A stretch of DNA of 64,000 bases. Source: Ignavibacteria bacterium (GTDB lineage: Bacteria; Bacteroidota; Ignavibacteria; Kapaibacteriales; Kapaibacteriaceae). The position numbers and the translations under genes were made by a program. The stretch covers positions 460,585 through 524,584 of the forward strand of contig JADJIQ010000005.1 of assembly GCA_016707005.1 (NCBI GenBank), given 5' to 3'. A model generated the notes under the pieces. The model searched no databases. It saw only the letters and a list, made by a program, of their open reading frames with translations, and was not told the DNA's origin. Numbering within the stretch: position 1 is the stretch's first letter; every line of letters begins with the position of its first letter. Below, in pieces: positions 3,056 through 61,146 of this stretch.

Positions 3056-3062
3056 TCTAAGG

Positions 3063-3098
3063 AGCCTGTGTTGGAGAGATCCGGCACAGGCTTTTTTT
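3063..3098 (+). terminator. Rho-independent terminator downstream of dnaK.
   Basis: A hairpin gcctgtg...cacaggc is followed by ttttttt. Confidence 0.6.
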
Positions 3099-4063: not shown

Positions 4064-4109
4064 AGAAGTCCAATATGCTACTAGAAATCCACGAAATCTG
4101 CCATGAACC

Positions 4110-4152
4110 CCGTAACTCTGTAACTCCGTATCTCCGTATCTCCGTATCTCTG
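4110..4152. repeat. Tandem octamer array of CCGTAACT/CCGTATCT-type units, about 5 copies.
   Basis: The sequence reads ccgtaactctgtaactccgtatctccgtatctccgtatctctg. It lies between the hydrolase start and the next gene. Confidence 0.8.
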
Positions 4153-4235
4153 TTAAGGTTTTGTCAAGGTGCACCTGAGTTCCCAACCCCCGATGTTCAT
4201 GTAGCAACATCTGTTCACACTCTCTTGGTAATGGT

Positions 4236-6266
4236 ATGAATCAGTCGGTACGGTTGGTGATTTGTGTTTGTGCATTCGTTCTTGGGATGATCTCTCTTGG
4301 CGCACAAACGAATGATACTTTGGTTTACTTAAATATGTACCGAGTTTTTGAGTATGATTTTCGAATTGAGAAGGTGCGGATGAACTTTGCATATGTCGAC
4401 AGTACGTTCATTTTTGGACTTTATGATGATGGGACCATCTTGTCCGGTCCGGCAGATGCTCGGGTTCAACGAACGTTACTCTCTCCAACTGCCTCGGTCT
4501 TCGTACCGGATACTGACACGCTCCTTGCCCTAGATTGTGGCGGTCTGTGGCTTCTGCCTATTGGATCCGATGAGCCCCGTACTCGCATCATGACCGTTTC
4601 AACAGACAGCAGGTTTGTGACGGCGATCGATCATGGTTTTGCATTGAGACGTGGGGGCAAGGTCTATGTCCACCACGGGTACGCTTCAGAACCGAGTGAT
4701 TCAATTGAACATCCGGAGACCGATGACTATTGGTCTGTTAGTGCAGACGGGAAGAGATCTGCATCATGGGGGTTGGGGCCTACACCGGCAACCGTGCAGT
4801 GGTCTGTAGGTGATGTAGAAACTGTTGATCTGTCTACCAATGGATACACGAGATGTGCTGTGCTGTCGGATTCCGTGATCGCAGCCTGGAATTCGAACCT
4901 GTTTATCTCCCGCGACCGCGGGCTTACATGGCACCACTACAGAGCACCGGAGATCGATCCATCATTGCCAGCCGAGGAGATTACCTATCGATCGTTCCGC
5001 AGCATTGAAGTGAGAGGCACGGATATCTATGTGGGGTTTGTGCCGGAAAAGCTAACCGAGATGTATCACTACTTCTCTTCTGATCTTGGCCTCACATGGC
5101 GGAGATACACTCCTGCAACAGCGCCCGTCCACAACAATGCCATTCCATACAGGGCCGGCATTGCCTCTCCTCGCAATGCTGCAGGCGTCCGATTAGTTAC
5201 CGATACAGATGGTACACGCATCGTAGAATCATTGTGTGAGATTCATGAAGCTGAAGGTGCCTGGAATGAGTACTCCATCGTGGAGCAGCGCGTGTCCGTA
5301 ACGGACACACTCTATACCTGGAGCCACACACTTGACTCCTGCATTGCCTTTGACCCGGGTGCAGACAGCACAACGTCATGGATTTGGTTCAACAATGGGA
5401 TACTCCTTACGAAACAACACTCTGAAACCATCTTCACTGAACGTGCCCTCCCAACTAGCCCCCTTCTCTCATGTTGGGTAGTTGATTCTGTAACAGCGAT
5501 CATCAAGGGTGAGGAAGGGGCGTATGTAACACATGACGCAGGAGCAACGTGGACGGCAGATTCCACCTATGATGGACTGCTTGCCTTTACGCCACTTATG
5601 AACGAAACACAACTCAGTCTCTGGCGCACGGCAACTGCCGGACTTGAGATCCGCTCATCGGATTCGATCTCACCGAATGGCACTCTTGTTGCCAGCCTTC
5701 CCAATACCGAAGCATCACAATTCATGATATCCAGGAATGGGGCTTCTGGTTGTGTGGTTCAGGCCGTAGGCGGTTCTGAATGGACCAGTCTTTCCATCGA
5801 GAACTTCACAGATCCAGGGTCGAACGAGCAGTTCTCAGACCACATGGTCCGATTCGCAGACAGCCTCACATCCAGATTGGCCACCGGACCGCAGCTCAAT
5901 GAAACAACCATCATCCCTCGGATCCACGAAGAACATGGATGGGTATTTGGAATCTCAAACGACGCCGAAGTCGGACTTCGGCAATACGCCATCCCCGTAG
6001 GAGTATCTGAATCAACTTCTATAGAGTCAGCATTGTCCATCTTCCCCAACCCAGCAAAAGACCTGTGTGTTATACGGTCCACGGACGGTACAGAGATCAC
6101 ATCGATACAGGTGTATTCTTCGATTGGCACCCTTGTGCTTTCTCAAACTCCTAACGGTTCGGAAGCACAACTTGACACCTCCACTCTTCCGGCTGGTGTA
6201 TACCACCTCTCCGTCATCGGTCCGGTCATCGGGCACACCTCCTCCCGAATCTGCGTAACCCCGTAA
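4236..6266 (+). CDS. Secreted protein with BNR/Asp-box repeats (glycosidase-like or Ycf48-like beta-propeller) and a T9SS C-terminal sorting domain.
   Basis: It has a signal peptide and Asp-box motifs (SRDRGLTW, SSDLGLTW, HDAGATW). The C-terminus (SIFPNPAKD...GVYHLSVI...) matches the Por-secretion tail pattern. Confidence 0.75.
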   Translation: MNQSVRLVICVCAFVLGMISLGAQTNDTLVYLNMYRVFEYDFRIEKVRMNFAYVDSTFIFGLYDDGTILSGPADARVQRTLLSPTASVFVPDTDTLLALDCGGLWLLPIGSDEPRTRIMTVSTDSRFVTAIDHGFALRRGGKVYVHHGYASEPSDSIEHPETDDYWSVSADGKRSASWGLGPTPATVQWSVGDVETVDLSTNGYTRCAVLSDSVIAAWNSNLFISRDRGLTWHHYRAPEIDPSLPAEEITYRSFRSIEVRGTDIYVGFVPEKLTEMYHYFSSDLGLTWRRYTPATAPVHNNAIPYRAGIASPRNAAGVRLVTDTDGTRIVESLCEIHEAEGAWNEYSIVEQRVSVTDTLYTWSHTLDSCIAFDPGADSTTSWIWFNNGILLTKQHSETIFTERALPTSPLLSCWVVDSVTAIIKGEEGAYVTHDAGATWTADSTYDGLLAFTPLMNETQLSLWRTATAGLEIRSSDSISPNGTLVASLPNTEASQFMISRNGASGCVVQAVGGSEWTSLSIENFTDPGSNEQFSDHMVRFADSLTSRLATGPQLNETTIIPRIHEEHGWVFGISNDAEVGLRQYAIPVGVSESTSIESALSIFPNPAKDLCVIRSTDGTEITSIQVYSSIGTLVLSQTPNGSEAQLDTSTLPAGVYHLSVIGPVIGHTSSRICVTP

Positions 6267-6423
6267 CCATGTAACCCCGTAACCATGTAACACCGTAACC
6301 ATGTAACACCGTAACCCCGCCACATCCCAACACCGGGCGAGGCGGGGCCTCGCCCCTACGCCGTAACCCCGTAACCATGTAACCCCGTATCTCCGTATCT
6401 CCGTATCTCGGTATCTTCCCGAT
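6267..6423. repeat. Octamer tandem repeat array (CCGTAACC/ATGTAACA/CCGTATCT units) with an embedded GC-rich hairpin.
   Basis: About 16 octamer units flank the perfect 9-bp palindrome gggcgaggc-ggg-gcctcgccc at 6339-6359, which is terminator-like for the upstream plus-strand gene. Confidence 0.85.
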
Positions 6424-7452: not shown

Positions 7453-9443
7453 TCGCGGTTCCTGCCGGACGTGAGAACGTATGTTCTGCTCTTACCAAAC
7501 GTATCGATGCATGGAGCACGGGCTCAGGCGGCGTAGTGGTGATCTCAGCTGAACCGGGCATGGGCAAGACAACCCTGCTCGATTGGATGGAATCAAAACT
7601 TGCCAGTGATCACCCTGGCGTTGTTGTCCGCGTTGATTGCCGTCCTCCTATTGGCGCTATCAATACAAGCGCCATACAGCCCCTTCAACCGTTCGGGGCA
7701 GCAATTGAGAAACTCTATCTTCAATCTGGTCAAGCAGCACGCAAACGTCTTGCCGTGAACATCGGCATGAGCGTTCTGGCTTCCATCCCTATCGCCGGCG
7801 ATCTGTTCTACGCGGTTAAGGCCATCTCGCAGGATGTGAACGAATACAAGCGCGAAACGGCTGCGATGCAGGAGAAGAAACGTTCTGCTGTAGCGGAATG
7901 TGTGACCACTCTTCGCACTATCGCCGAGAAGTCGCCGTTCATTCTTCTGGTCGACGAAGCCCAATGGTCGGATTCGCAAAGTGTAGAGGTTATCCGCCAG
8001 CTCGTGAACACCCTGGGCTCAACGCCGCTGTTGATCGTCTGGTGCGTGTCACCTTCCATGGCACAACGGTCCAATCTTCCGTTATCCATGTTGCTTCGCT
8101 CCGATGACATGCGTGCAGCAACGATCAACCTAGAGCCGATCGGGCAGGAACATGTGGCCGCTGTTGTTCAACAGATACTCCCGACTGCACAGATACCCGA
8201 CACTGTCCTCAAGACCATTTTCGATCGCTCGGGAGGCAACCCGGGTATCGTGACCGAATATGCTCGATTCCTGCAGGGGGCTGGCCATCTCCGCCCGGAT
8301 GGGACGATCGATGAGCATGTGTTTGACTCGATCAAGATCGACAGTACGGATCACCCTGCAACGGATGTGATCCTGCGCGACATCACAGAAGACGATGCCG
8401 TCCTCCTCTCTCTCTGTGCAGCAGAGGGTCAGGAATTCACGGCGTTTCTGCAAGCAGCACTCTCAAACACTGATGTGCTGTCGATGATCCGCTCGCTTCG
8501 GCGACTACAACGAACCACCGGACTCATCCGCAGTATTGGCACCCGCGCGCGCTATGGCGTTAAGACCACAGCGTACGAATTCGAACAGAGCTTCCCGTAT
8601 ACCTACTTCCTGCACCGTCCGGAATACGAAGAGCGCAAGAACATCCATCAGCGTATTGCCGAGATCTTGTCGCGAGAATATGCGTCAACACAGATCGATG
8701 AGTTACGCGGACAACTTGCTGCGCACATCGCAGCACATGGCGCAGAAGCAGAGGACAACGTCATGGTAGAGCGTATGCTCACCGTGATGGCTGATGAAGC
8801 TGAACGTTCTGGTTCGCACGACATCGCCTCATACATCCACTCAGAAGTCCTGCCACCATATGCTGGACTGATGAGCAGCGCCGCTGTAAAGGGTGTGGAC
8901 GTCAAAACAGGTGAAGATGATGCGGAAAGTGATGGATCTGCCTACTCAACCGGTCAGCCCCTTCCCGTTGTTGTTCGAGAGATCTCGGATGCCATCGTGC
9001 AAGGTAGGGCCAATGAGGCGCGAACGGCAGCCATCAGAACGTTGGAGACACACGGTGGACTCTCTCGTCACGAACGCGTATTGCTGACGTGTCTTGCTGC
9101 ACGTGCATGTGTGGATCTTGGGATGCTTGATGATGCCGATACCTTCATGCGATCTGTGGCTTCTCTTTCCGACGTCTCTCCGTCAGATCACTGCTACATG
9201 AAGAACGTAGAGGGGGCTATCGAGCTCGCTCGTGGTAATAGTGCCGCTGCCTCTACCTGTTTTCATGAAGCTGCACGCCTTGCCGAGAATCTCCCGGTCA
9301 ACGTGCGCGTGATGACGCTTGGCAATATCATTCTGCATCTGCGTGCAGCCAATGATCGATCCGTTGATCGATATGAACACACTGTGCGCCGTCTTGCATC
9401 CGTGCATGGCTGGCCCGGTGTTCGCGCAGATCTTGGTCTTTGA
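7449..9443 (+). CDS. P-loop NTPase of the AAA_16/STAND class with a C-terminal TPR-like helical region.
   Basis: It carries Walker A (GEPGMGKTTLL), Walker B-like (ILLVDEAQWSD) and a GGNPGIV motif analogous to GNPLF in AAA_16. It is translationally coupled to the upstream membrane protein. Confidence 0.7.
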   Translation: MIAVPAGRENVCSALTKRIDAWSTGSGGVVVISAEPGMGKTTLLDWMESKLASDHPGVVVRVDCRPPIGAINTSAIQPLQPFGAAIEKLYLQSGQAARKRLAVNIGMSVLASIPIAGDLFYAVKAISQDVNEYKRETAAMQEKKRSAVAECVTTLRTIAEKSPFILLVDEAQWSDSQSVEVIRQLVNTLGSTPLLIVWCVSPSMAQRSNLPLSMLLRSDDMRAATINLEPIGQEHVAAVVQQILPTAQIPDTVLKTIFDRSGGNPGIVTEYARFLQGAGHLRPDGTIDEHVFDSIKIDSTDHPATDVILRDITEDDAVLLSLCAAEGQEFTAFLQAALSNTDVLSMIRSLRRLQRTTGLIRSIGTRARYGVKTTAYEFEQSFPYTYFLHRPEYEERKNIHQRIAEILSREYASTQIDELRGQLAAHIAAHGAEAEDNVMVERMLTVMADEAERSGSHDIASYIHSEVLPPYAGLMSSAAVKGVDVKTGEDDAESDGSAYSTGQPLPVVVREISDAIVQGRANEARTAAIRTLETHGGLSRHERVLLTCLAARACVDLGMLDDADTFMRSVASLSDVSPSDHCYMKNVEGAIELARGNSAAASTCFHEAARLAENLPVNVRVMTLGNIILHLRAANDRSVDRYEHTVRRLASVHGWPGVRADLGL

Positions 9444-9464: not shown

Positions 9465-12320
9465 ATGAATCGAACCCTGACGCTTCTTTGCGCCACCGTA
9501 TTCCTCGTTGTCTCTGCATTGTCACAGACTGACAATCCACATGCACGGCATATGGAGCGCGCTCATCCAACGCCGCTTCGCAACGTGAACTACGATGGTC
9601 TCACGTACATGGTGCCGATGCTCACGGAGAAGGTCTATCCAAGCCTCTTCCTCAACGTGAACATGATCGTTGAAGAGACAGATCCGCTTCCGGCACAGAA
9701 CGAATCGTCCATCGCCGTCAACCCACGCAACCCACGTCAGCTCATTGGTTCGGCTGTAGACTACCGGCTCAGCTCCTCTACATGGGCCTACTACTCAACT
9801 GACGCTGGTGCAACGTGGGAGAATATCACACTCGGCACTGCTCGTATCGGTTGGGCATCAAGCAATGACCCATCTGTGTGTTTTGATCATAACGGCAAGG
9901 GATACCTTGTCTACGGTGGTTTCAAACGCGAAGGCAATGTGCAGTTCGGCGAGAATGGCGTCTTCATCAGCTCCACTACGGATGGTGGAAAGACGTGGGG
10001 CATGAAACACACGGCCGTGATCATACACACCGGTCCACAGACGGCCGACTCAACATTCGAAGACAAGTACTACATCCACGCCGACACAGCTGCTACATCA
10101 CCGTATCGTGGTCACCTCTACATTCCGTGGAAACGTGTTGTCAACCGCGACTCTTCAACACAGATCGTGATCTCGAAAAGCACGGATGAAGGGGCTACAT
10201 GGTCCACCCCCACCTACGTTAGCGATCGGTTCCCGCGTACATCTGAAGACACTACTTTCGGACAAAGTTTTCCTCTTGCACGCACAGGTCCCGATGGTTC
10301 TGTGCACCTTGTTTGGAACAGTGGAACAGAAGACGCGCTTCGATACGCACGATCTGTAGATGGTGGTGCTACATGGTCAGCACCGCGGATCATTCACACC
10401 TACAAGCCCTTTGGTACAAAGAGCACGATCAACGGTCAAACCAACTCCCGTGTAAAAGGTGTTGTGCGAGCGGAGTGTTATCCAACACTAACCATTGACA
10501 ACACCGGCGGCGCTCGCAACGGATGGTTGTATCTGACGTGGGCAGCAGACAACTACCCCAACGTCTACTTCTCGCGTTCAACAGATAATGGTACTACGTG
10601 GTCACCTGCTCGGATCGTGCATAGCGACACCACGAACGACCAATTCTGGTCATGGATCTCTCTCGATCCAACCTCCGGAGAGATCGCCATCATGTATAGT
10701 GACAGTCGCGATGACGTAGACAACATCCTCGTCAACACCTACGTGAGTTGGTCATCAGATGGCGGTACCACCTGGCTTGATCGTCGCATCGGCGATGATG
10801 TGAATGACCTACGTCGCAACCCATTCCAAGGCAACACCTTTGCCGGTGACTATTCCGGCTGCGACTTCTACAACGGCGTTGTCTATCCATCGTGGGTGGA
10901 TATGCGCAATACGTATGTGAACCCTGCCGACAACGATGTCTTCACAGCCATTGTAGATACACGAGCACCAGGAGCCCCTTCCACTTTTGCTGCTACAACC
11001 ATTCCCAACCGTCCAACACAGATCGACCTCACGTGGTCTGCTGTAACATCACTTGCGTATGGTCAGCCCCTTCCCCCCGATGCACGGATCATCATCCGCA
11101 GAGACGGATCACCGATCGATACACTCGGCGTAACGGCTGTAGCAATGACCGATACGGGGCTCATCAAGTACCAACTCTACACCTATACACTTACTGTTGT
11201 TGCAGGGGGCAGATCAAGCACACCACGCGTTGCATCGGCATATGCAGGGGGCTCCAAGGAACTCCAGGCGCCACGATTGGTCTCTGCGGTAGGAAGCACA
11301 AGTCGAGAGACCGAGATCGTTGTTGACCTGCCGAAACTTCGTCTCGACAATGTGACACAGATCATCAACCTCGCTGGGCTTGAGTCTGCGCTGACCGAGC
11401 AAAAGTTCGCAAAAGCACTTGCCGTGACCGACACCGGTACTCGCACAACGCATCTCGTTACGCCGTCAGAGGACGGTTGGTATCGCGTGCAAGAACGAGT
11501 CCTTGATTCAGAAGGCAATACGAGTCCGCTCAGTGACTCACTTTGGATCTACACCGGATCGTTGCAGAGCGATGCGCAGAACTTCACCACAGAACCGCGG
11601 TACCACAAGATCCTCGGCAATTGGGGCAATGCAACCAACTTCTATCGGTCTGCTCCGGCATCGTATGCGCATAGTCCTAGTGGTGCATACCTTCCAAACA
11701 GACGGGACACCGTGCAGATATTTCCGTTTGCCGTTTCGTCGGCCGTGATCCCTGAATATCCAACTCCGGCGCTAACGGTTTCCGTTGCAGCCTTCATTGA
11801 TCCAAGCGACACGATGTTCCTTGAGGTATCAACCAATGGAGAGCGCGGTTCCTACTCAGTGCTTGAATGGTGGAACTCCTCGCGAGATGCGCGCTGGAGC
11901 GATACTACCAAGGGCGAAGACGCATGGCGGACATACACAATGGTTCTGCCATACGAGCAAAAAGACGACACACTTCACTTCCGCCTGCGCTTCCGAAGCA
12001 ACGCATCACGGCAATCAGATGGCTTCTACATGGATGATCTTGCTTTTGACTACATCAACAGCGTCGACGAAGAACAGTCAGCTATCTCCACCATCGCCCC
12101 CATTCCAACCTCGGCATTTGTGAACGTCACCTTGCAGAACGATGCACCCGTCACACGCTGCGTGGTTGTTGATGCCCAAGGCACAACCCACAACGTTTCG
12201 TGGTATCAGTCGGGCCTCTCCCTTATTGCTAACGTTCAGCACCTTCCCCAAGGTGTCTATACTATCGCTATCGATCGTACTTCGTCTACGTCCCACTCCC
12301 CATTCCTCATTCTCCGCTAA
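9465..12320 (+). CDS. Secreted BNR/Asp-box repeat protein (sialidase-like or glycosidase-like) with an FN3-like region and a T9SS CTD.
   Basis: It has a signal peptide and multiple Asp-boxes (STDGGKTW, STDEGATW, SVDGGATW, STDNGTTW, SSDGGTTW). The C-terminus has a CTD pattern (GVYTIAIDR...). Confidence 0.75.
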   Translation: MNRTLTLLCATVFLVVSALSQTDNPHARHMERAHPTPLRNVNYDGLTYMVPMLTEKVYPSLFLNVNMIVEETDPLPAQNESSIAVNPRNPRQLIGSAVDYRLSSSTWAYYSTDAGATWENITLGTARIGWASSNDPSVCFDHNGKGYLVYGGFKREGNVQFGENGVFISSTTDGGKTWGMKHTAVIIHTGPQTADSTFEDKYYIHADTAATSPYRGHLYIPWKRVVNRDSSTQIVISKSTDEGATWSTPTYVSDRFPRTSEDTTFGQSFPLARTGPDGSVHLVWNSGTEDALRYARSVDGGATWSAPRIIHTYKPFGTKSTINGQTNSRVKGVVRAECYPTLTIDNTGGARNGWLYLTWAADNYPNVYFSRSTDNGTTWSPARIVHSDTTNDQFWSWISLDPTSGEIAIMYSDSRDDVDNILVNTYVSWSSDGGTTWLDRRIGDDVNDLRRNPFQGNTFAGDYSGCDFYNGVVYPSWVDMRNTYVNPADNDVFTAIVDTRAPGAPSTFAATTIPNRPTQIDLTWSAVTSLAYGQPLPPDARIIIRRDGSPIDTLGVTAVAMTDTGLIKYQLYTYTLTVVAGGRSSTPRVASAYAGGSKELQAPRLVSAVGSTSRETEIVVDLPKLRLDNVTQIINLAGLESALTEQKFAKALAVTDTGTRTTHLVTPSEDGWYRVQERVLDSEGNTSPLSDSLWIYTGSLQSDAQNFTTEPRYHKILGNWGNATNFYRSAPASYAHSPSGAYLPNRRDTVQIFPFAVSSAVIPEYPTPALTVSVAAFIDPSDTMFLEVSTNGERGSYSVLEWWNSSRDARWSDTTKGEDAWRTYTMVLPYEQKDDTLHFRLRFRSNASRQSDGFYMDDLAFDYINSVDEEQSAISTIAPIPTSAFVNVTLQNDAPVTRCVVVDAQGTTHNVSWYQSGLSLIANVQHLPQGVYTIAIDRTSSTSHSPFLILR

Positions 12321-12366
12321 CCCTATCTAACATTCTAACACTCTAACCCTCTAGCACTCTAACGCA
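12318..12366. repeat. Short tandem octamer array of CTAACNNT units between convergent genes.
   Basis: The sequence reads ctaaccctatctaacattctaacactctaaccctctagcactctaacgc. Confidence 0.6.
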
Positions 12367-20800: not shown

Positions 20801-21388
20801 ACGATCCGTGAGCTGCGCGCCACGCTTGTGAATAATGCCAGTGCATTCTTGCCGGATTCCACAGATCGCGGTGCGCTTCGCACGAGCCTACGTGGTGAGG
20901 ATCGACTCTCATACCTGTTCGTTGAGAATGTGCAGGTGATCTCCACCCGTCAAAAGATCACAGAGGTCAGGGGGCTGGTCTTGGCCGGTACCATCGAGAC
21001 AGTTCCTCTCACATGGGAAGATGTGTCGTGGCAAGGAGAGGCATGTCCTACTATTCGTTCGACGAACGGACTACTGTATATCTCGGGATGTAATCTCTCA
21101 GGGAGAGCATTGCGCAACTTCCTTGCGTCAACCGTTGGTGTCCGCGCCTTGCCGTCCGAAGATAGGATCGCCATTGATCTCCAGGCGAACATGCCGGGAC
21201 CATATCATTTGCAACTCGTTGGTCTTGATGGTCGCGTATTGTGGACGCACACGATCACTCGCACCGAGCGTGATCTCGGTGCTGCTCCACTGCAGATCGA
21301 TATGTCTGCAATGAGCACAGGAATGTATGTGCTGCATGTTGTACTTCCGGCGAACTCGGAGACCATTCCATTCGTATGGGTCCGATAA
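17873..21388 (+). CDS. Large T9SS-secreted surface protein: an N-terminal beta-propeller-like region, 6 tandem Ig-like repeats, then a CTD.
   Basis: It has a signal peptide and a repeated motif W-S-P-x2-G-L-S-D-P...P-x-A-S-P...T-T-Y-x-V. The C-terminus is CTD-like (GPYHLQLVGLDGRVL...GMYVLHVV). Confidence 0.8.
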   Translation: MSKQPRYGSGGRSRVGSTLVYAAVALVCVLLPSITVIAQPLSTMNWYFGQRAGVTFRNGSIEAVADGQLNTSEGCATYSDPLTGELLFYTDGVMVWNRIHEIMPNGMGLAGDPSTSQSALIVPAPGRPNIYYVFNAAPVTSSNVGTRCLCLYYSIIDMRADAGFGDVVKKNEVALNDITEHLTATADCNGDGWWIVVRSRSTRHFYSLHLTRDQLAPTPVVSDASNPTLIVREAGQMHISPDSRQLVITSATGNSQLYDFDAQTGKVTNGINLFKTEIFGSHYGAAFSPDSKKVYISVANEGPITPTRVYQFSIGVKDASTITASKFLLGEISGTYTWTPMQLALDGRVYIGISGKPWLALIDAPNSDSSLAALQDTAIRLSGVCRSGLPNIIGSTLIDPALRLTACSLPRASFDYPADICEKTCISIRDASTGSIDSWQWYFEGGSPSSSIERNPQRICYESSGVYSIRLIVSNGYGSDTAYSYVTVMPRPSVSIDSVAEICPGTPIQLRAYGADSYVWSPANQVSDPLRSDPVVRPRSTTRYTVIGTNSYGCKDTTTILVRVTDMSAGSDVSICVGASAQLTAQGAESYSWSPIDGLSDPLSAEPIASPDRTTSYVVTMQRGQCIVRDTVVVTVVDSFNVKIVGPDRTCIGDTLILSPSVGTSHVWSGNGVIDPTSTVARVVMGNSPTMIRLIARSGDCLAYDSLMVQPVFGPPIELGPDVRVCQGESTVLTAQTAATDVVWSPSDGLDRTLGNTVICLPSATTRYIASARGDSGCVNFDTITVVVLPRPDAHAGADTSICAGSSVQLNASGTADRFEWSPTIGLDDPTALRPIASPVQTTTYVLRALTGTCESFDTVTVFVSTLNVGISADTVICKGEATMLRASGASTYQWTPPAGLSDPNSDTPLASPQTTTTYTVRGIDQLGCEQTRSVTVRVRDTASIRLIAGSVTAAAGSEDVGIPVFVEVPASLLPLTIRELRATLVNNASAFLPDSTDRGALRTSLRGEDRLSYLFVENVQVISTRQKITEVRGLVLAGTIETVPLTWEDVSWQGEACPTIRSTNGLLYISGCNLSGRALRNFLASTVGVRALPSEDRIAIDLQANMPGPYHLQLVGLDGRVLWTHTITRTERDLGAAPLQIDMSAMSTGMYVLHVVLPANSETIPFVWVR

Positions 21389-21413
21389 TTCGAAGCACAA
21401 GCGGTACTTTTGT

Positions 21414-23531
21414 ATGATGGATCGACGATATGCCCACCTCTTGTGGGCTTTTTTCATTGCGACAACGATCGTTAGTGCGCAGACCCCGAAGCGCGATACG
21501 CTTCGAACACGCCACGTAACCGATAGTCTCCGTACGTATCTCAAGTCACAGGTTGTTGTGACCGGGACGCGCAATGAAGTGCGTCTCAAAGACTCACCCG
21601 TTCGTGTTGAGGTGATCGGCAAGGAACGGATCTCCACAACGGCAATGACGGACATCGGAGATCTCCTCCGTGAGCAAGCCGGTATTGTGATCACCGGTGC
21701 CGTACGAAACGGGATACAGATGAATGGCCTTGGCCCTGACTACACACTCATCCTGATCGATGGACAGCCCGTAGTAGGACGTGTGGCCGGTGTTGTAGAC
21801 CTCTCTCGTATCTCTGTTGGGAATGTAGAGCGCGTTGAGGTAGTGAAGGGGCCAATGAGCAGTATGTATGGAAGTGACGCCCTGGCCGGCGTTGTGAACA
21901 TCATCACCAAACGTCCGGCCAACGGATTCAATGGGACCGTCATGGTTCAGGGCGTTACAAGAGGCCCCCTCGAAACTCGTATTGAAGGTGGCTGGGGCAG
22001 TGATTCGATAGAAGTCTCGGGATTCCTTGATTACAAGAACCAACCGCAGTTCTCACTCCCGCTTGATACAATGTCCATTCCGTATGCGGGGTTTCAGGAT
22101 GGCACGCTGCACGGCAAGTTTCAATGGAAGTTTGCCAAGGGGTGGACCACTCGTGCTTGGCTCAGACTTTTTGGGTCGGAGACGCGCGGATCATTCATTG
22201 AAAGTGTTGCCGGACAGATCGCACAAAACACAGGATCGGTGCAACAGTGGGACGTTTCCAGTACGGTTGGCGTAGAGTACCAAAGCGGTCGCGCACGACT
22301 CACCATGAACGCCTACGGGTCTTCCTATAACGAACGATACAACTTCGATTCTTCTCAGGGGGCTGCTGGTTCAACTGATGATCTGTTGCGGCGCATTGGT
22401 CGACTCTATGCGCAATACGACGTGCAGCTTGGAGCTGCCAACAGACTCACGATGGGCGGAGAGTTCCTCTACGATGACATCGATGGATCTCGATACAGAG
22501 ACTCAACCGGCGCACATCCGTTCTATCGCACCTATGTGGCGTTCGCCCAATGGGAGGGAATGCCAACGGATTGGATCTCGTATGTGGTGAGTGGACGATT
22601 TGACGGCAACAGTGTCTTTGGTTCGGCGCTGAGTCCGCGCCTTTCGTTGTTATGGAAGCCAGGCGAGAACCTACGCGCGTCCGGATCCATCGGTACTGGA
22701 TTCAAAGCCCCCGACTTCCGTCAGCTCTACGTAACGTTCTCCAACCGGCTTGCCGGTGCAGGTTATGACCTGATCGGTGCCGAGCGCCTGGGCAATACGT
22801 TGGAACCCGAACGCAGCGTCTCGTATGACCTCAGTCTACGCTATGAAGATGGTCAGCGTCAGCTCACGGATGAGCTATCCCTTCTCTACAGTGCTGAGAT
22901 CCGCGCCTTCCGAAACGATCTGCGAAACCTGATTGAGTTTTACTTCGTGGAGTCTGTTGAGGGCAGAGATGTGTACTCGTATCGCAACATCTCGCAGGCC
23001 TATACACAAGGGATCGAGTGCAACCTCCGTCTCGCACTTGCCATCGACAACGTTGGCGTCTTCAGTGCACTCGGCGGATATCAATTCCTCGATGCAAAGG
23101 ATGTGCAGGTTCTTGAGGCGATCGACAATGGTGAAGCCGGCACCATCGATGGACTTCTCACGCGCGAAGACTACCATGGACTGTGGGGTCGGTCTCAGAA
23201 CAGCGGATCGCTCCGCATTCAGTACGACTCTCCCGACCATGCTTGGAGCACCAACGTTCGCTTTCAATTCATCGGACGGTACGGCGATGAATCTCTGGAC
23301 AAGAACGGTATCGTGATCTCTGATCCGCCGCGCAAGGTCCTCGACCGCGATGACGAATTCGTTCAAGGCTACGTTGTTGTCAACCTTGCTCTCACACGCT
23401 CATTCATGCTCAACGAACAACGTCTGCTCATCGGTACCGGCATCAATAACCTGCTCGATGAATTCCACCCAACACTCATTCCGGGATTGGTTGGGCGGCA
23501 GTTCTACGTGCAGGCAAGCATCAGCTTTTAG
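21414..23531 (+). CDS. TonB-dependent outer-membrane receptor.
   Basis: It has a signal peptide, a plug domain (VVVTGTR, GPMSSMYGSDALAGVVNIITK), a beta-barrel and a terminal aromatic residue (...ASISF). The start is placed at the MMDRRY methionine. Confidence 0.85.
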   Translation: MMDRRYAHLLWAFFIATTIVSAQTPKRDTLRTRHVTDSLRTYLKSQVVVTGTRNEVRLKDSPVRVEVIGKERISTTAMTDIGDLLREQAGIVITGAVRNGIQMNGLGPDYTLILIDGQPVVGRVAGVVDLSRISVGNVERVEVVKGPMSSMYGSDALAGVVNIITKRPANGFNGTVMVQGVTRGPLETRIEGGWGSDSIEVSGFLDYKNQPQFSLPLDTMSIPYAGFQDGTLHGKFQWKFAKGWTTRAWLRLFGSETRGSFIESVAGQIAQNTGSVQQWDVSSTVGVEYQSGRARLTMNAYGSSYNERYNFDSSQGAAGSTDDLLRRIGRLYAQYDVQLGAANRLTMGGEFLYDDIDGSRYRDSTGAHPFYRTYVAFAQWEGMPTDWISYVVSGRFDGNSVFGSALSPRLSLLWKPGENLRASGSIGTGFKAPDFRQLYVTFSNRLAGAGYDLIGAERLGNTLEPERSVSYDLSLRYEDGQRQLTDELSLLYSAEIRAFRNDLRNLIEFYFVESVEGRDVYSYRNISQAYTQGIECNLRLALAIDNVGVFSALGGYQFLDAKDVQVLEAIDNGEAGTIDGLLTREDYHGLWGRSQNSGSLRIQYDSPDHAWSTNVRFQFIGRYGDESLDKNGIVISDPPRKVLDRDDEFVQGYVVVNLALTRSFMLNEQRLLIGTGINNLLDEFHPTLIPGLVGRQFYVQASISF

Positions 23532-23622
23532 TTACGTAGTTACTCAGTTACATAGTTACTCAGTTACGTAGAAACTTTGATACTCTGTAACTCTGTAACT
23601 GCGTAACTGAGTAACTGCGAGT
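23530..23622. repeat. Inverted octamer-repeat blocks (GTTACNNA on the left, GTAACTNN on the right) forming a long imperfect hairpin that exactly fills the gap between two convergent stop codons.
   Basis: The left arm gttacgtagttactcagttacatagttactcagttacgtag is complementary to the right arm tctgtaactctgtaactgcgtaactgagtaactgcgag. It is a probable bidirectional terminator. Confidence 0.8.
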
Positions 23623-24104
23623 TAGACCGGCTTAAATCCTTCAAACGCCTGCAAGCACTTGTTGCAGTAGTGAAGGGAGCGGCAGAGAGTTGGTCCGAAC
23701 GGGCTCTTGAGCGTGGTGTCACGTGAACCGCAGAATGGGCAGGCCACGTTGTTCAGCACATCAAGCTTCAGTGTGAGCGTATCAAAGGGCTCTGGTGGAG
23801 CAAGGCCATGTTTTAGCAGAGCGGCTTTACCCGCTTCGGTGAGGCGATTGGTAGTCCATGGTTGATCAAAGGTGACACTTACCGTCACGTTCGAAACACC
23901 AAGCCCCCTAACAGCCGATTCAACGTCATTACGCATCACAGTGATCGCCGGACATCCAACGAATGTTGGCGTCATGGTAACGTGGACCTCGTCATCACTA
24001 CGCACATCAACGTTTGTGATGATCCCCATGTCCACGAGAGAGATCGTTGGGATCTCCGGATCGTGCACATTGAGAAGTGCATCATAAACATCTTGCTGCG
24101 TCAT
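23622..24104 (-). CDS. paaD: Phenylacetyl-CoA 1,2-epoxidase subunit PaaD (DUF59/MIP18-like, with a C-terminal Zn ribbon).
   Basis: It has VHDPEIP and IVDMGII-type motifs and a C-terminal CPFCGS...CNKC. Confidence 0.8.
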   Translation of the reverse strand: MTQQDVYDALLNVHDPEIPTISLVDMGIITNVDVRSDDEVHVTMTPTFVGCPAITVMRNDVESAVRGLGVSNVTVSVTFDQPWTTNRLTEAGKAALLKHGLAPPEPFDTLTLKLDVLNNVACPFCGSRDTTLKSPFGPTLCRSLHYCNKCLQAFEGFKPV

Positions 24105-24105
24105 C

Positions 24106-24861
24106 TCACCACTCCGCAGACGGATCGATGCGATAGACTTCCGTCATCTCATCAAGAAGCGGTTTGAGGTGTTCTGTATGGTGTCCCTTACGTCCACCAT
24201 ACACTGGAGTGACATTTGTCGGGATCACGAGTGTTGACGTTTGCAGGAGTTCCTCAACAAGTTCAACCCAGCGTTGCTGAGCGGCTACTTCTCCAATGAA
24301 GATCCCATCGGCTATCAATGCATCCTCATGTTCTCCGGGCTCGAACATTCCCAACGCATATGGCCATGCGACATTCAGGGCCGACTGCATTCGTGCATGG
24401 GACTCTTCGTTGCCATTGGCACCAAGTTGTACCATCCATGTTTGAGCATGATAGAGATGGTACTTCAGTTCGCCGTGGATCTTGCGGGCAAGGTTGGCAA
24501 GGGGCTCTACAGAGCTCTGAACCAATGCCGTCCAACGAACATACTCTGCCACGTCAAAGAGGAAGTGTCGTACGAGTGAGAAGTCATATTCACCATTCGG
24601 CAACTCGACGAAATGCGAGCAGCGCATCTTGAGTTCATCGCGCATGAAGGCTGCGGTGTCCGCATCCGGCCCTCCGCCAAGTTCGTGCATGATGGTGTAG
24701 AGAGCTTGAGCGTGACCGAGTTTGTCTTGCGCGATCGAAGAAAATGCAATGTCTTCTTCCAAGAGAGGACCAAGTCCGGTCCACTCCGAATGCCTGTGCG
24801 CAAGGATCAGTTCGTCATCCGCCATGCGGTAACAAAGGTCGTTCAGTGCGTTCGTATTCAT
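24106..24861 (-). CDS. paaC: Phenylacetyl-CoA 1,2-epoxidase structural subunit PaaC.
   Basis: The C-terminus GGRKGHHTEHLKPLLDEMTEVYR matches E. coli PaaC (GGKKGLHTEHLGPMLAEMQYLQR). Length is 251 aa. Confidence 0.85.
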   Translation of the reverse strand: MNTNALNDLCYRMADDELILAHRHSEWTGLGPLLEEDIAFSSIAQDKLGHAQALYTIMHELGGGPDADTAAFMRDELKMRCSHFVELPNGEYDFSLVRHFLFDVAEYVRWTALVQSSVEPLANLARKIHGELKYHLYHAQTWMVQLGANGNEESHARMQSALNVAWPYALGMFEPGEHEDALIADGIFIGEVAAQQRWVELVEELLQTSTLVIPTNVTPVYGGRKGHHTEHLKPLLDEMTEVYRIDPSAEW

Positions 24862-25253
24862 TCGGCAGAGCCTTCCGTATTCTGTTTCTTAAAGGCTTCC
24901 ACCTTGTTGCGGACCATGTAGGCCGACACTTCCCGGTATTTCTTCTCGGGAGTTGTGGCGAACACATCGGCATCTTCTGCAGACATCGTGAACACGTCTC
25001 TTGTGTTCACCACCCACAGATTCACCGTTTGGCCACGCCGAGCATACTGCTCCTTTGCCAAAAGGAGAGCTAGCTCGTGGTTGGGTGCGTGAACACATCC
25101 AACGTGCATGTGGTGTGCACCACTCTTGCCCTGGTGGAAGACCTCAAAGGTCTGAAACTGATCGAGCTCCGGTTTTGGTTCCAGCGGGTCTTTCCGCTCC
25201 GGATCGATCTGCATCCGCGTAACACGCGGGTCGAGGGATATGATCGTCGCCAT
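24858..25253 (-). CDS. paaB: Phenylacetyl-CoA 1,2-epoxidase subunit PaaB.
   Basis: The FEVFHQGKSGAHHMHVGCVHAPN...LWVV segment resembles E. coli PaaB (YEVFVRGKQGLSHRHVGSLHAPD...VWVV). It overlaps paaC by 4 nt. Confidence 0.85.
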   Translation of the reverse strand: MATIISLDPRVTRMQIDPERKDPLEPKPELDQFQTFEVFHQGKSGAHHMHVGCVHAPNHELALLLAKEQYARRGQTVNLWVVNTRDVFTMSAEDADVFATTPEKKYREVSAYMVRNKVEAFKKQNTEGSAE

Positions 25254-25331
25254 GAGGGCAAATTTACGAACTTTTCAGCCCCCATTGTCCTGATTAAGAC
25301 AGACGGTATGAGAGGTAGAGAGAGTAGACGG

Positions 25332-25537
25332 GACGTTGACGTTATGACGGTATGACGGTATGACGGTATGACGGTTATGACGTTATGACTGGTAACTAAG
25401 TAACTGCGTAACTGAGTAACTGAGTAACTGAGTAACTAAGTAACTGCGTAACTCTGTAACTGAGTAACTGCGTAACTGCGTAACTCTGTAACTGCGTAAC
25501 TAGTAACTGCGTAACTAGTAACTAGTAACTAGTAACT
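25332..25537. repeat. Largest tandem octamer array: 4 GACGGTAT units, then about 20 GTAACTNN units, degenerating into GTAACTA heptamers.
   Basis: It is read directly from the sequence. It occupies the position upstream of paaB where paaA would be expected. Its 3' part encodes the last 7 codons and stop of the gene at 25515..27818. Confidence 0.9.
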
Positions 25538-27818
25538 GACTTACCCCCACCATCTCCCCATTGGCCATTACCGTAAGCGAATAGGGTCCTGTTGGCAGAC
25601 CGTTCACGTTGAGGGTGATGTCTATTTCACCGTCCGGAACGCTGCGGGCAGACGAGTAGCCCATCACGCGTCCGGCAACATCATGCAGGGTGGCTGTTAG
25701 GTCCGCAGAGGGCCCCTGAACGTGTTTTACTGTGATGGTTAGAGAAGTAGAGGCCGGAACAGGAAAAGGGGCTGAGAGTCGCCACGAGGAGCCCGCACTG
25801 ATCACGAGTGCGGCCACACCTACATCGCAGCGAGATGAGCCGGTGAACGCGATGGGAAGCCCCTTACTTTGAATTGGGATCTTCCCAACAGAGCAGGTGT
25901 CGGGGAGGGCAAGAGTATCTTCTACAAGGCCTGTATCAATGGCCGAGGCACAGAGGGTGAGCTCGCCGATCTCACCGGGAGCGATGTTGATCGGGAATTG
26001 CGCTTGGGGCATCGAGAAGTAGACGTTGCCCACGAAGAACGGACGGGAGATCACCAGCGGTTCGTTGGTTGAGATGTTTCTGATGCGGACTGTGCGGCAA
26101 GCCAGGGTACCTACGTTGTGATCGTTGACGATGATCACGCCGCCGTCGCCGGGGCTGAATTGCACGTTCGCCTTGTTGCGGGTATCGAGCTTGACAACAC
26201 GCGTGGTGTCCGACGTGCCAATACAGCCATTGTCGTCCACCACCGTCACCACATAATCGCCACCCTGATCCGTTGTGATCGAGCTGCTTGTTTCGCCGGT
26301 ATTCCACTCATACTTGCGGAAACCGGGAGGTGCCGTTAGAGTGATCACGTCATCGAGACAGATCGTGAGTGACCGGTTTGCTTGGATTGTTGGTCTAGGA
26401 CGGGGGTTAACGGTTACGGTGATCTCCGACGTGGCGGTGCAGCCGGCGGAGTCGAGGGTTACACAGGTGTACTTCCCACTTGTCTTCACCACCGTGGACT
26501 GTGTTTGGTCACCATTGGACCACAACCAGGAGTTGATCGGCCCATCCACACTGAGGGTGATAGAATCTCCCTCACAGACAGTCTTCGGGATGGAGGTGAT
26601 ACGCGGTTCGAATGTGCTTTTCAAAGCAACTCGTATGGTATCCTTGGATTCGGCACATGTTGCTCTGTCATAGACGGAAACGATGTACCTGCCAGGTTCA
26701 GTCAGGTACCTGCCCGGGGACTTTACGCCATCGCTCCATGAATAATTGTCAACGGCAGAACGCGCTTCTACAAAGGCACTATCTCCCTTGCAGATCATGA
26801 TAACCTCATCAGCGGGGACGATGGCAACCTTTGGTCCGGCTGCATTGAAGTTACTTCTGTACACACCCTGACCAACGGCCCAGCCGAGCGTGTCGTTGAT
26901 GAAGAAGATATCGTCGATGTTTCCTCGGATACCACAATTACGGTTGGTCCAAGACTCCCCCGCATCGTCGGTATACAACACAGCCCTATCGTTGCCCACG
27001 CCCCATCCGCGACGTTCATCGAGGAGGAAACTGCCGAACATGTTTGCGCCGGTCTGATATTCTCGCCAAGATCGACCAGCATCGTTGCTATATCTAAGAG
27101 AACCGATTCCGCTGGCATTACCATCACACGTGTTACCGGCTGTTGGGATCAGCATGGCATTGCCGGAAATGGCGAGCTCCTCTGACCAGACCTTGCTGCC
27201 TGTTCGGGAGTAGATGCTCCATGACCGACCGAAGTCTGTTGTGCGCCACAGAACTCCGCTGCTCACAGCGAATCCACTTCCGTTACGGAAGATGATCCCG
27301 TCACTCAGTCCGCTCATCGGCTCGGTCCCATAGGACACCGTCCAGCTCTGTCCGGCATCGGTCGTCCGGTAGAATGCCTGTATACCTGATGCGCAGCCAC
27401 CAACGAAATACAGACCTTCGTTCTGATTGATCCAGTAGGAGCCCCATCCCTTTTCAAAATTGGGATCGAAGGGTGAGATGTCTCGCCAGGTTATCCCGCC
27501 GTCATCGCTGCGAAAGACGCCGGCATGACCTGACACGTAGCCGATCGAAGGCGTCAAGAACTGGACATATTCGAGAAATGCCCCTGGGATAGTAGAACCG
27601 CGCCACGTGGCACCGCCATCCGTGGTACGAATGATCTCACCATTCATCCCGCACACCCAGCCTAGATTCTGATTGCCGGGCAGGAAATAGACGTCGAGAT
27701 AATACCCTTGATCATAGGGAGGTGGCAACAATGCTTCCTTCCATTGCGCAGCAAGCGGTGCCGTTAGCGAACAGCAGAGCAAGACCAATGTTGCGATATG
27801 ACCAAAGGTTCTCTTCAT
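25515..27818 (-). CDS. T9SS-secreted BNR/Asp-box beta-propeller protein with Ig-like domains and a CTD.
   Basis: It has a signal peptide (LVLLCCSLTAPLAAQ), Asp-boxes (TTDGGATW, SDDGGITW, TTDAGQSW, TTDFGRSW, SNDAGRSW, TDDAGESW) and a CTD-like tail. Confidence 0.75.
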   Translation of the reverse strand: MKRTFGHIATLVLLCCSLTAPLAAQWKEALLPPPYDQGYYLDVYFLPGNQNLGWVCGMNGEIIRTTDGGATWRGSTIPGAFLEYVQFLTPSIGYVSGHAGVFRSDDGGITWRDISPFDPNFEKGWGSYWINQNEGLYFVGGCASGIQAFYRTTDAGQSWTVSYGTEPMSGLSDGIIFRNGSGFAVSSGVLWRTTDFGRSWSIYSRTGSKVWSEELAISGNAMLIPTAGNTCDGNASGIGSLRYSNDAGRSWREYQTGANMFGSFLLDERRGWGVGNDRAVLYTDDAGESWTNRNCGIRGNIDDIFFINDTLGWAVGQGVYRSNFNAAGPKVAIVPADEVIMICKGDSAFVEARSAVDNYSWSDGVKSPGRYLTEPGRYIVSVYDRATCAESKDTIRVALKSTFEPRITSIPKTVCEGDSITLSVDGPINSWLWSNGDQTQSTVVKTSGKYTCVTLDSAGCTATSEITVTVNPRPRPTIQANRSLTICLDDVITLTAPPGFRKYEWNTGETSSSITTDQGGDYVVTVVDDNGCIGTSDTTRVVKLDTRNKANVQFSPGDGGVIIVNDHNVGTLACRTVRIRNISTNEPLVISRPFFVGNVYFSMPQAQFPINIAPGEIGELTLCASAIDTGLVEDTLALPDTCSVGKIPIQSKGLPIAFTGSSRCDVGVAALVISAGSSWRLSAPFPVPASTSLTITVKHVQGPSADLTATLHDVAGRVMGYSSARSVPDGEIDITLNVNGLPTGPYSLTVMANGEMVGVSQLLVTSY

Positions 27819-28648
27819 CGGATGATGATCGCACGTCCCTTCATCAGTTTACGGTTGGAAGTGATCGCAACAACATACGCCCCTTGAGGCACTTGGGAAC
27901 CATCGTTGCCTCTGCCATTCCACGTATAGCGGAATGATTCGCCGGAAGCAATTGCATTGTCCGATGCTACAATAGCACCCAGATGGTCAAGGACGGTGAT
28001 CTGTAGTTGTTCGTTTGCCTGGGTAGGTACGGTCATTGACACCTGGTCGTGGGCAGGCACCGGTGAAACCACAACATCTACATCGGAGTACTCATCCACG
28101 GAATTGGGGAGTCCGACAACGACCTCCACCACAGGCATGCGATTCCATTGATCGATGGTGCCGGCACTGCCATCTCCGTTCACGGCATTGCCAATGGCCC
28201 GAAGATAATAGGTACCGGGTTGGGAGGGGGCTGTCCAGGTAAAGGTAAATGACGCCTCGTTGTCGACCAATGGTTTCGGCGTAGAATGAGTGAGTTCACC
28301 GGCAGAGAGTCTCAACCCCTGACCAGTCACGATCCCGAGGGTACCTGCGTTCGTGGTCCCTTGTTCGGTGGACTTTACGGCTATTCCAACTCCCGCAGCT
28401 TGTCGTGAAAGATGGGACACTACTACGGTGAGGGTAATGGTCTCCCCACTCACGGCAGAGAGCTTTCCGTCTACAGCTTGAACAACGCGCAATGTAGTGG
28501 CTGGGTTCGCTGAAGATGCGGCTCCATGACATCCCGAACCTGAACAACCGGGAGAGTTCAGGGCTGTGCGTCCTGCCTGACCAGAACCGCTGGCGAAAAG
28601 TCCAGTGGATGCAACGATCAAGATCACAAGAGTAGAGAAGATCCGCAT
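27815..28648 (-). CDS. Small T9SS-secreted protein with an N-terminal C-x4-CH motif and a CTD.
   Basis: It has a signal peptide and the motif GCSGSGCHG right after it. The C-terminus is CTD-like (GAYVVAITSNRKLMKGRAIIIR). It overlaps the upstream gene by 4 nt. Confidence 0.65.
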   Translation of the reverse strand: MRIFSTLVILIVASTGLFASGSGQAGRTALNSPGCSGSGCHGAASSANPATTLRVVQAVDGKLSAVSGETITLTVVVSHLSRQAAGVGIAVKSTEQGTTNAGTLGIVTGQGLRLSAGELTHSTPKPLVDNEASFTFTWTAPSQPGTYYLRAIGNAVNGDGSAGTIDQWNRMPVVEVVVGLPNSVDEYSDVDVVVSPVPAHDQVSMTVPTQANEQLQITVLDHLGAIVASDNAIASGESFRYTWNGRGNDGSQVPQGAYVVAITSNRKLMKGRAIIIR

Positions 28649-28724: not shown

Positions 28725-28766
28725 GCCAAAATAAAAAGCGGGGACGCACTGACGTGCGTCCCCGCT
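28725..28766 (-). terminator. Rho-independent terminator of the giant gene.
   Basis: A 13-bp perfect stem agcggggacgcac/gtgcgtccccgct with loop tgac is followed on the minus strand by a T-rich tract. Confidence 0.7.
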
Positions 28767-28790
28767 GAAATGTGAAGCTGGCTGGTCGAA

Positions 28791-61101: not shown

Positions 61102-61146
61102 AACGAAAAAGCCTCTCCCGTTCATTCGGGAGAGGCTTTGTTTCTT
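61102..61146. terminator. Bidirectional rho-independent terminator between convergent genes.
   Basis: A 10-bp perfect stem gcctctcccg/cgggagaggc with a 6-nt loop is flanked by an A-run and a T-run. Confidence 0.75.

Follow-up and report, generated by a model that had tools for sequence, protein, structure and literature searches.

Opposed tandem octamer arrays between a TonB-dependent receptor gene and paaD in an Ignavibacteria bacterium: a strain-variable hairpin that is probably a by-product of repeat expansion

Does a hairpin that fills the gap between two convergent stop codons end the transcripts of both genes, or is it there for some other reason? This question is raised by the spacer between a TonB-dependent receptor gene and paaD in a 64,000-nt stretch of DNA from an Ignavibacteria bacterium (assembly GCA_016707005.1, contig JADJIQ010000005.1, positions 460,585 to 524,584), which we refer to as the window. 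A preliminary description of this DNA had taken the spacer for a built-in bidirectional terminator, and had proposed that the repeat family is arranged to make a symmetric hairpin usable from both strands. Our analysis leads to a different conclusion, to which we assign a probability of roughly 0.7: the spacer holds a polymorphic pair of opposed simple-sequence arrays, built from 7-8-nt units with the core AGTTAC/GTAACT, and the hairpin is a by-product of their layout. The site belongs to a known kind, the hypervariable intergenic simple-sequence arrays, and is part of a TAACTGA-like family that extends across the genome.

Two opposed arrays in one register

The receptor gene (21327-23531, + strand) was taken from the list of open reading frames (ORFs), matches the Pfam families Plug (1.7e-22) and TonB_dep_Rec_b-barrel (1e-33), and ends in a TAG at 23529-23531. 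Converging on it is paaD, the gene for phenylacetyl-CoA epoxidase subunit D (23622-24104, - strand; Pfam Zn_ribbon_PaaD 1.2e-19 and FeS_assembly_P 1.2e-18), whose TAA stop appears as TTA at 23622-23624 on the + strand. The ORF list and the sequence agree with the stop positions first reported and with the 90-nt gap between them (23532-23621). paaD closes a - strand run of paaB, paaC and paaD, and its neighbors match Pfam PaaA_PaaC and PaaB.

Twelve 8-nt units in a single register occupy positions 23530-23625. Read on the + strand from 23530, the first six are AGTTACGT, AGTTACTC, AGTTACAT, AGTTACTC, AGTTACGT and AGAAACTT, and the seventh to twelfth are TGATACTC, TGTAACTC, TGTAACTG, CGTAACTG, AGTAACTG and CGAGTTAG. 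The left arm (23530-23569), identified from the sequence, by pattern search and with Tandem Repeats Finder (TRF), consists of five units of AGTTACNN with the tails GT, TC, AT, TC and GT. It is followed in the same 8-nt register by two decayed units, AGAAACTT and TGATACTC (23570-23585), which form the hairpin loop and its inner weak pairs. The right arm (23586-23617) has four units of NGTAACTN, from TGTAACTC to AGTAACTG, which are opposite in polarity to the left arm and equal to it in phase, and the decayed end unit CGAGTTAG (23618-23625) holds the paaD stop. Exact GTTAC cores start at 23531, 23539, 23547, 23555 and 23563 and exact GTAAC cores at 23587, 23595, 23603 and 23611, so that all nine exact cores lie in a common 8-nt phase. 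TRF reported the site as two rows of period 8 (23529-23571 and 23582-23616), and the heptamer TAACTGA is found within the right arm at 23604-23610. Across the window, GTTACNNAGTTAC occurs 33 times when up to one mismatch is allowed, against 0.46 occurrences expected, which is far beyond chance.

Opposed octamer runs thus span the gap from stop to stop, as had been described, although the right arm contains four exact units and one decayed unit rather than about five exact ones. What had been read as a 12-nt spacer between the runs is really the pair of decayed units, 16 nt in the same register and not unrelated sequence. The runs do reach both stop codons, and the proposed exact bridging needs a correction only at its ends, where the G of the receptor TAG doubles as the first base of the first GTTAC core and the paaD stop falls inside a decayed unit.

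The arms form an inverted repeat of 35 nt with 83% complementarity (range 83-85%). An imperfect stem of about 35 bp had been predicted; the arms have that length, and the fold itself has 33 pairs with internal loops. Folded as RNA, the spacer reached -48.3 kcal/mol on the + strand (z -6.94) and -41.0 kcal/mol on the - strand (z -5.65), and folded as DNA it reached -22.1 kcal/mol on the + strand (z -5.1), each compared with 200 shuffles. None of the 200 shuffles matched the real spacer in any of the three folds, so the expectation of a hairpin on both strands that folds better than shuffled controls was borne out. The shuffle control, however, mainly shows the presence of repeats and not selection for a hairpin.

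Two independent arrays that share the core would be expected to reach about 81% complementarity (the 6/8 fixed core plus a quarter of the remaining 2/8). In the minimum free energy fold, Watson-Crick pairs form at only 3 of the 10 variable tail positions of the left arm, and a search for matching variable tails between the arms found, in the two best registers, 2-3 matches in 8, as many as chance would give. Thus the stem pairs no better than core identity dictates, and nothing in the arms points to compensatory tuning or to their having recently been duplicated in inverted form. Furthermore, the unit is nearly palindromic, since AGT-T-ACT pairs with itself everywhere but at its center, and a single-orientation array therefore already folds weakly (-21/-17 kcal/mol on the two strands for a 90-nt piece, compared with -44/-39 kcal/mol for the inverted spacer). 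A central T to A change turns AGTTACTC into AGTAACTC, which reverses the polarity of the unit and leaves its register unchanged, and the two central units of the spacer are intermediate in sequence.

Alleles, relatives and the origin of the opposed arms

A look-up of the exact PaaD sequence returned ten other contigs (L001-L010), mostly metagenome-assembled genomes (MAGs) from activated sludge, which together with the window made up our strain set. These contigs are 95-99.5% identical to the window, none of them being identical, and the junction falls into four alleles. The 90-nt octamer allele is present in the window and in L005, L006, L008, L009 and L010. L002 carries a 122-nt allele with four extra units, all in the paaD-side arm. 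In L001 and L004 a 99-nt allele has heptamer arms, (TAGTTAC)n and (GTAACTA)n, around an unrelated 33-nt center, together with a different receptor C-terminus. Finally, L003 and L007 are array-less, with a spacer of 7-13 nt by gene calls, and TRF confirmed that no array is present.

The window, L002, L005, L006 and L008-L010 do not differ by a single nucleotide polymorphism (SNP) over a 240-nt block (23448-23687) that runs from the 3' end of the receptor gene through the spacer into the 3' end of paaD. Beside this block the receptor coding sequence differs at about one site in every 6-10, and these flanking differences are dense and synonymous. This suggests that the block is a recently shared, possibly recombined, haplotype, and for that reason the identity of the octamer alleles does not count as independent conservation. 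On this SNP-free background L002 gained 32 nt (four units) in one arm while the other arm stayed unchanged. The arrays upstream of paaB likewise range from 165 to 312 nt between strains (L001-L009, around 8520-8850). Between strains, the number of units in an array shifts more quickly than point mutations build up.

In sister species, represented by the closest PaaD homologs (79-84% identical; the named ones are Candidatus Kapabacteria or Bacteroidota), the contigs keep the gene order of a BNR protein, paaB, paaC, paaD and a converging receptor. Their spacer measures 12-22 nt and has no repeats, and TRF found no arrays in those loci. Going by the names attached to the closest homologs, at 83% identity ("Candidatus Kapabacteria bacterium" and "Bacteroidota bacterium"), the species of the window is probably a Ca. 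Kapabacteria. Judged from these comparisons, the arrays at the receptor-paaD junction are derived, species-specific, polymorphic and dispensable.

The receptor gene itself was called as two pieces in four of the ten assemblies (L001, L004, L007 and L009). In L003, a 13-nt tandem duplication (AGAACTGCCTGCC x2, around 10500-10530) near the receptor 3' end shifts the frame. A repeat unit overlaps the final codon of the receptor gene in L001 and L004, so that the protein ends in Ile where a C-terminal Phe is usual. These features could be long-read assembly errors or real gene decay.

The spacer is one of many such places in the window. TRF found about 12 arrays of period 7-8 in the 64 kb, all inside or at the edges of intergenic spacers, and the arrays fill most of the longer intergenic spacers regardless of gene orientation. 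Each of the features that mark long simple-sequence repeats is seen here, namely tandem 5-11-nt units beyond chance, many intergenic loci, and copy-number polymorphism between strains. With spacer types assigned from a crude gene map and Pfam annotation, arrays occur in convergent spacers (at 2980, 12326 and 23530), in a probable divergent spacer (4110), and in co-directional spacers (6254, 25305-25539, 54082 and 58606). Four spacers hold two adjacent arrays, and of these two are inverted and two direct, as expected for random orientation. We also looked for a fixed array orientation relative to neighboring genes at 6254-6416, at 25388-25539 and in both arms at 23530, and found none: the array at 6254-6416 follows its + strand gene in the GTAAC sense, and those at 25388-25539 and in both arms at 23530 follow their genes in the AGTTAC sense. 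The idea that the family is arranged for a symmetric hairpin did not hold up, given the same arrays in all spacer types, arms without extra complementarity, and the one-arm expansion in L002.

Beyond this species, we scanned one genome per species for runs of five GTTACNNA units in tandem and obtained at least 120 loci (L011-L130). Among the matches listed, the representative genome of the species itself is absent, and the loci fall in Bacteroidota, Kapabacteria, Ignavibacteria, Balneolaceae, Verrucomicrobiota, Acidobacteriota, Proteobacteria, Chloroflexota, Cyanobacteria and others, with several loci per genome in Ca. Kapaibacterium, an Ignavibacteria MAG, two Chitinophaga MAGs, Ca. Didemnitutus and Balneolaceae. 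Only one of the 142 strictly defined arrays in the 120 listed genome loci has an inverted neighbor within 80 nt. A metagenome scan for the inverted octamer pattern (3 + 3 units with a gap of 8-38 nt) gave two loci, too few for context statistics. Inverted pairs are rare. Of those recovered, two occupy divergent spacers, in an Ignavibacteria MAG (L065) and a Didemnitutus MAG (L034), and the two from the metagenome are in a spacer between co-directional genes (L141) and in one that is probably convergent (L140). The two arms keep a common 8-nt phase at the window site and in L065 and L140, and do not in L034 and L141; a shared phase in three of five inverted pairs compares with an expectation of 1/8 (binomial p ~0.016).

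We favor a model in which replication slippage would lengthen and shorten the arrays until they run into selected sequence, in this case the two stop codons. An expansion that halts at selected stop codons would account for arrays that bridge the gap exactly, and elsewhere in the window arrays themselves supply stop codons and the final codons of genes (6264-6266 and 25515-25539). Within such an array, a change of the central base in the near-palindrome AGT-W-ACT would reverse the polarity of a unit. One in-register array could then evolve into two opposed arms by point change and slippage, and a long hairpin would follow automatically. The continuous 8-nt register, the intermediate central units and the phase identity in three of five pairs lead us to infer, for at least some of the inverted pairs, an origin within one tandem array and not through inversion or insertion. 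For the heptamer allele, whose center is unique, another origin is possible, such as an inserted segment or, in the opposite direction, a deletion between short GTA repeats. The junction would thus provide a clean natural example of hypervariable arrays that fill intergenic gaps right up to the stops, and of a near-palindromic unit that turns a tandem array into a long hairpin, gained and lost between strains of one species.

The terminator question and competing explanations

A canonical intrinsic terminator carries a U-tract 3' of its stem, and the bidirectional form has an A-tract on one side of the stem and a T-tract on the other. Hairpins without a U-tract are poor terminators of bacterial RNA polymerases in vitro. 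On the + strand at the receptor-paaD junction there is a single T-run, CTTTT (23525-23529), and it precedes the stem, which leads into GCGAGTTAGACC with nothing T-rich. On the - strand the stem is followed by CTAAAAGC (AAAAGC), so that the paaD transcript would carry AAAAG past the stem. A U-tract 3' of the stem is therefore missing on both strands, and the polarity of the flanks is the reverse of the A-tract, stem and T-tract layout. In place of a short GC-rich stem, the spacer is 38% GC and its 33 interrupted pairs compare with canonical stems of 10-17 bp in the window. Nor is the hairpin conserved at the orthologous junction, since it is missing from L003 and L007 and from the sister-species contigs (L131-L139), and the remaining alleles vary in the length and number of their units. 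What the spacer does offer is a stable predicted stem-loop on both transcripts past the convergent stops, which flank the stem directly.

A consensus terminator scan of 21000-28000 placed no site at 23530-23622, a scan of the whole window found canonical terminators elsewhere only and none at this spacer, and an Rfam scan of the whole window at gathering thresholds returned no match. The terminators that were found look different. At 61108-61139, in another convergent spacer of 90 nt (between an ORF at 60558-61073 and clpB), a canonical bidirectional terminator consists of an A-tract, a 12-bp GC-rich stem (GCCTCTCCCG...CGGGAGAGGC) and a T-tract, and scores on both strands; it serves as an internal standard for how a terminator appears in the host genome. 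A canonical terminator on the + strand, GCCTGTG...CACAGGC followed by TTTTTTT (3059-3098), stands after dnaK and its array. Because it directly follows that GCGAATA array, the array and the terminator are separate things at dnaK. The terminator scan also found a GC-rich stem with a T-run on the - strand at 28736-28767.

The spacer therefore resembles bidirectional intrinsic terminators in its position between convergent stops and in the hairpin possible on both transcripts, and differs from them in lacking correctly oriented A- and T-tracts, in its long, AT-rich and interrupted stem, and in its lack of conservation. We do not class it as a terminator, because two defining features were tested and neither is present. 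Our literature search on octamer or tandem-repeat hairpins as terminators brought up nothing relevant. Taken together, the sequence features, the terminators of the genome itself and the comparison across strains, species and contexts argue against a dedicated or arranged terminator, and the hairpin appears to be neither a canonical nor a conserved one. As a terminator the site would matter little; as a caution for annotation, it illustrates that a strong fold z-score over a repeat-rich spacer is no evidence of a terminator.

Repetitive extragenic palindromes (REPs) and their composites BIME and REPINs, in enterobacteria and pseudomonads, are extragenic, often lie past stops and are frequently found as inverted hairpin pairs. 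They can stabilize upstream mRNA or attenuate transcription, and they are fixed imperfect palindromes of 20-40 nt spread by RAYT transposases. The present spacer is similar in that it is an extragenic repeat past stops whose inverted pair forms a hairpin; in contrast, its arms are variable-number tandem repeats of 7-8 nt, and no second copy of the whole element was present in the sequences searched. By analogy with REPs, the 33-bp hairpin may incidentally impede RNA polymerase or 3' exonucleases. A stronger version would hold that it is a recently acquired bidirectional RNA 3'-end element, which would stop or pause polymerase without a U-tract, or block 3'-5' exonucleases, and so insulate the receptor and paaD transcripts. 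The strong hairpin on both strands and its place exactly between the convergent stops fit such an element, as does the fact that the commonest allele bears the hairpin (the window and six of the ten loci), that two different alleles at the junction are both inverted, and that a canonical terminator is lacking in the 12-22-nt ancestral spacer. Against it stand the absence of a U-tract, the wrong flank polarity and the 38% GC, the poor in vitro termination generally seen with hairpins of this type, and the use of canonical terminators, one of them bidirectional, elsewhere in the genome. Some strains and the sister species manage without the hairpin, the expansion in L002 affected one arm only, the arms show no extra complementarity, and the inverted layout also occurs in promoter and co-directional spacers. 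We therefore consider a dedicated 3'-end element unlikely, though its probability is not negligible. The natural alleles (no hairpin, 90 nt, 122 nt and heptamer) form a set with which the effect of the hairpin on read-through could be tested.

Several observations weigh against our view of the hairpin as a by-product of opposed arrays. The inverted layout roughly doubles the fold stability over that of a single-orientation array of equal length. Inverted arrays are found on two haplotypes at this junction, octamer and heptamer, with different loops and receptor C-termini, which could mean that a hairpin is favored here, and the ancestral junction has no obvious terminator, so that a hairpin might be of use. 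An invariant core with varying tails is not what plain slippage would obviously produce, yet it is seen in the largest array of the window (25388-25539), where the AGTTAC core is intact in 19 of 19 units and the tails take five forms (GC, TC, T, AG and TT). This pattern hints at a sequence-specific constraint, and it leaves room for a binding factor or for an expansion mechanism that would need a palindromic core. Moreover, most of the strain genomes are long-read MAGs, whose repeat lengths are open to mis-assembly; two sequences from other sources, L006 from ENA and L010 from Logan, match the window allele exactly.

The invariant core admits a broader, speculative reading as well. Arrays of 7-8-nt units with an AGTWAC(T) core might constitute a cross-phylum, sequence-specific repeat system, maintained or seeded by a putative GTWAC-recognizing factor, with inverted pairs as newly born elements that would shape RNA 3' ends or local DNA structure. 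This proposal draws on the invariant 6-nt core with drifting tails, the in-register polarity flips, and recurrence in many phyla (among the matches listed, in Kapabacteria, Ignavibacteria, Bacteroidota, Balneolaceae, Verrucomicrobiota, Acidobacteriota and Proteobacteria), and we regard it as distinctly improbable. A narrower alternative, compatible with slippage-driven opposed arrays and given slightly less credence still, is that the units are clustered sites for a putative DNA- or RNA-binding protein that recognizes AGTTAC/GTAACT, the hairpin being secondary. The core invariant in 19 of 19 units with 1-2-nt tails that vary would suit such sites, as would a GTWAC core that is symmetric like dimer sites, and GTTACNNA arrays that occur, among the matches listed, in many phyla and with many copies in some genomes; a regulatory-network idea has also been proposed for TAACTGA repeats (PMC4679880). 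However, no binding protein is known or was identified in this analysis, and the arrays are freely gained, lost and resized between strains and are absent at the same sites in sister species. In addition, unrelated units in the window (GCGAATA, TGACGGTA and TCTAACAC) behave alike, which indicates a general mutational process.

Another candidate is a mobile hairpin, resembling a miniature inverted-repeat transposable element or a REPIN, that would have inserted between the stops, perhaps at a TA site, and would have been spread by a transposase from another locus. In its favor are the inverted symmetry of its ends, which it has by construction, and the comparison of L001/L004 with array-less L003, which differ by one block with the unique 33-nt center and a short flanking direct repeat (GTA/TA). 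We consider it very improbable, since the loop sequences (up to 3 mismatches) have only allelic copies and no second copy in the window and 141 loci, the arms are variable-copy tandem repeats and not fixed sequence, the octamer allele is one continuous register with decayed units in the middle and no foreign sequence, no transposase was found among the 26 of about 45 window ORFs scanned against Pfam, and the short flanking repeat equally fits a microhomology-mediated deletion.

Relation to published repeats and the other arrays of the window

The closest published relatives of the family are the TAACTGA direct repeats of Beggiatoaceae, Cyanobacteria and five Bacteroidetes, which are intergenic and abut start or stop codons (MacGregor 2015, PMC4679880). 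They vary between strains "in 7 nt increments" and are missing from close relatives with the same neighbors; some Bacteroidetes have long arrays, and one "indirect repeat" was noted in BOGUAY (PMC4679880). No function has been established for them, and slippage, protein binding and roles in rearrangement have been discussed (PMC4679880). Similarly, the arrays described here are intergenic tandem arrays that abut start or stop codons, vary by whole units between strains, and are missing from close relatives with the same gene neighbors. As with TAACTGA repeats, one orientation contains stops in every frame and the opposite one is open. Many units contain TAACTGA, and the octamer GTAACTGA is TAACTGA plus one base; the heptamer is embedded in some octamers, at 23604-23610 and in the GTAACTGA units of 25388-25539, with a period of 8, or of 7 as GTAACTA, and most tails differ.

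In contrast to the published repeats, the period here is usually 8 and occasionally 7; the AGTTAC core is fixed, and a tail of 1-2 nt is free to vary. The octamer and the AGTTACT heptamer are nearly palindromic and a pure TAACTGA tandem is not, the Kapabacteria-like host is from a lineage outside that study, and hairpin-forming inverted pairing was not analyzed there (PMC4679880). The placement differs from that in BOGUAY, where TAACTGA lies close upstream of start codons in the "forward" orientation, other placements being reported in Cyanobacteria and Bacteroidetes (PMC4679880); the arrays at this junction follow stops and are in the "reverse" (AGTTAC) orientation relative to both genes. We conclude that the repeat is, by its sequence, probably a related variant of TAACTGA and not the same repeat. 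The TAACTGA-type repeats, which are poorly understood, would thereby gain an octamer variant from a Kapabacteria-like lineage.

More generally, long simple-sequence repeats with 5-11-nt units in prokaryotes were treated by Mrazek et al. 2007, as summarized in PMC4679880. As far as that summary goes, these repeats and the cyanobacterial STRR heptamers share with the present arrays their short-unit tandem intergenic layout, a scattered phylogeny and a proposed origin by slippage, and differ in unit sequence, since an invariant core with a variable tail, a polarity switch in one register, and hairpins are found here. A Nostoc preprint reported that other heptamer repeats affect promoter activity modestly, with no mechanism.

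The largest array, with 19 units of the AGTTACNN kind in one orientation (25388-25539, - strand), lies between paaB and the stop of an upstream gene for a 767-aa BNR protein of the type IX secretion system (T9SS) kind, whose final codons and stop are inside the array (25515-25539). The same spacer (25254-25539) holds three arrays in all: AGTTACNN x19, a strain-variable array of TGACGGTA x7 (25337-25394, + strand) and GGTAGAGA. A length-variable array in this likely promoter region could alter paaBCD expression. Next to it, paaB, the PaaA_PaaC-family gene (251 aa) and paaD adjoin one another (23622-25253) with no other paa gene beside them. This run is bounded by the BNR/T9SS protein gene upstream and the receptor gene downstream, a layout kept in sister species.

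Among the other arrays, listed on the + strand, a perfect (GCGAATA) x10.9 array in one orientation (2980-3055) begins 4 nt past the dnaK stop. TRF and the gene map place about five copies of CCGTAACT/CCGTATCT at 4110-4150, in a spacer that is probably divergent, if the - strand ORF at 3110-4210 starts at an ATG near 4105 and not at its listed start. The co-directional spacer at 6254-6416 holds GTAACCCC/GTAACCAT arrays with a 16-nt higher-order period and a CCGTATCT array, and the first array unit supplies the TAA stop of the upstream gene (6264-6266). At 12326-12363, TCTAACAC x4.8 in one orientation fills a 38-nt convergent spacer that has essentially no fold (-1 kcal/mol). An inverted pair of an unrelated heptamer, GAATAGC x4.6 followed by GCTATTC x10, lies in the co-directional spacer between ddl and a pfkB-family kinase gene (58606-58751) and, at -57.5 and -68.3 kcal/mol for the two strands, folds more strongly than the hairpin at 23530. 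Finally, a GAGATACG/GAGTTACG octamer array (54082-54126) occupies the atpE/atpF spacer of the ATP synthase operon, and two GC-rich hairpins are found near it, at about 54167-54200 and at 54202-54221.

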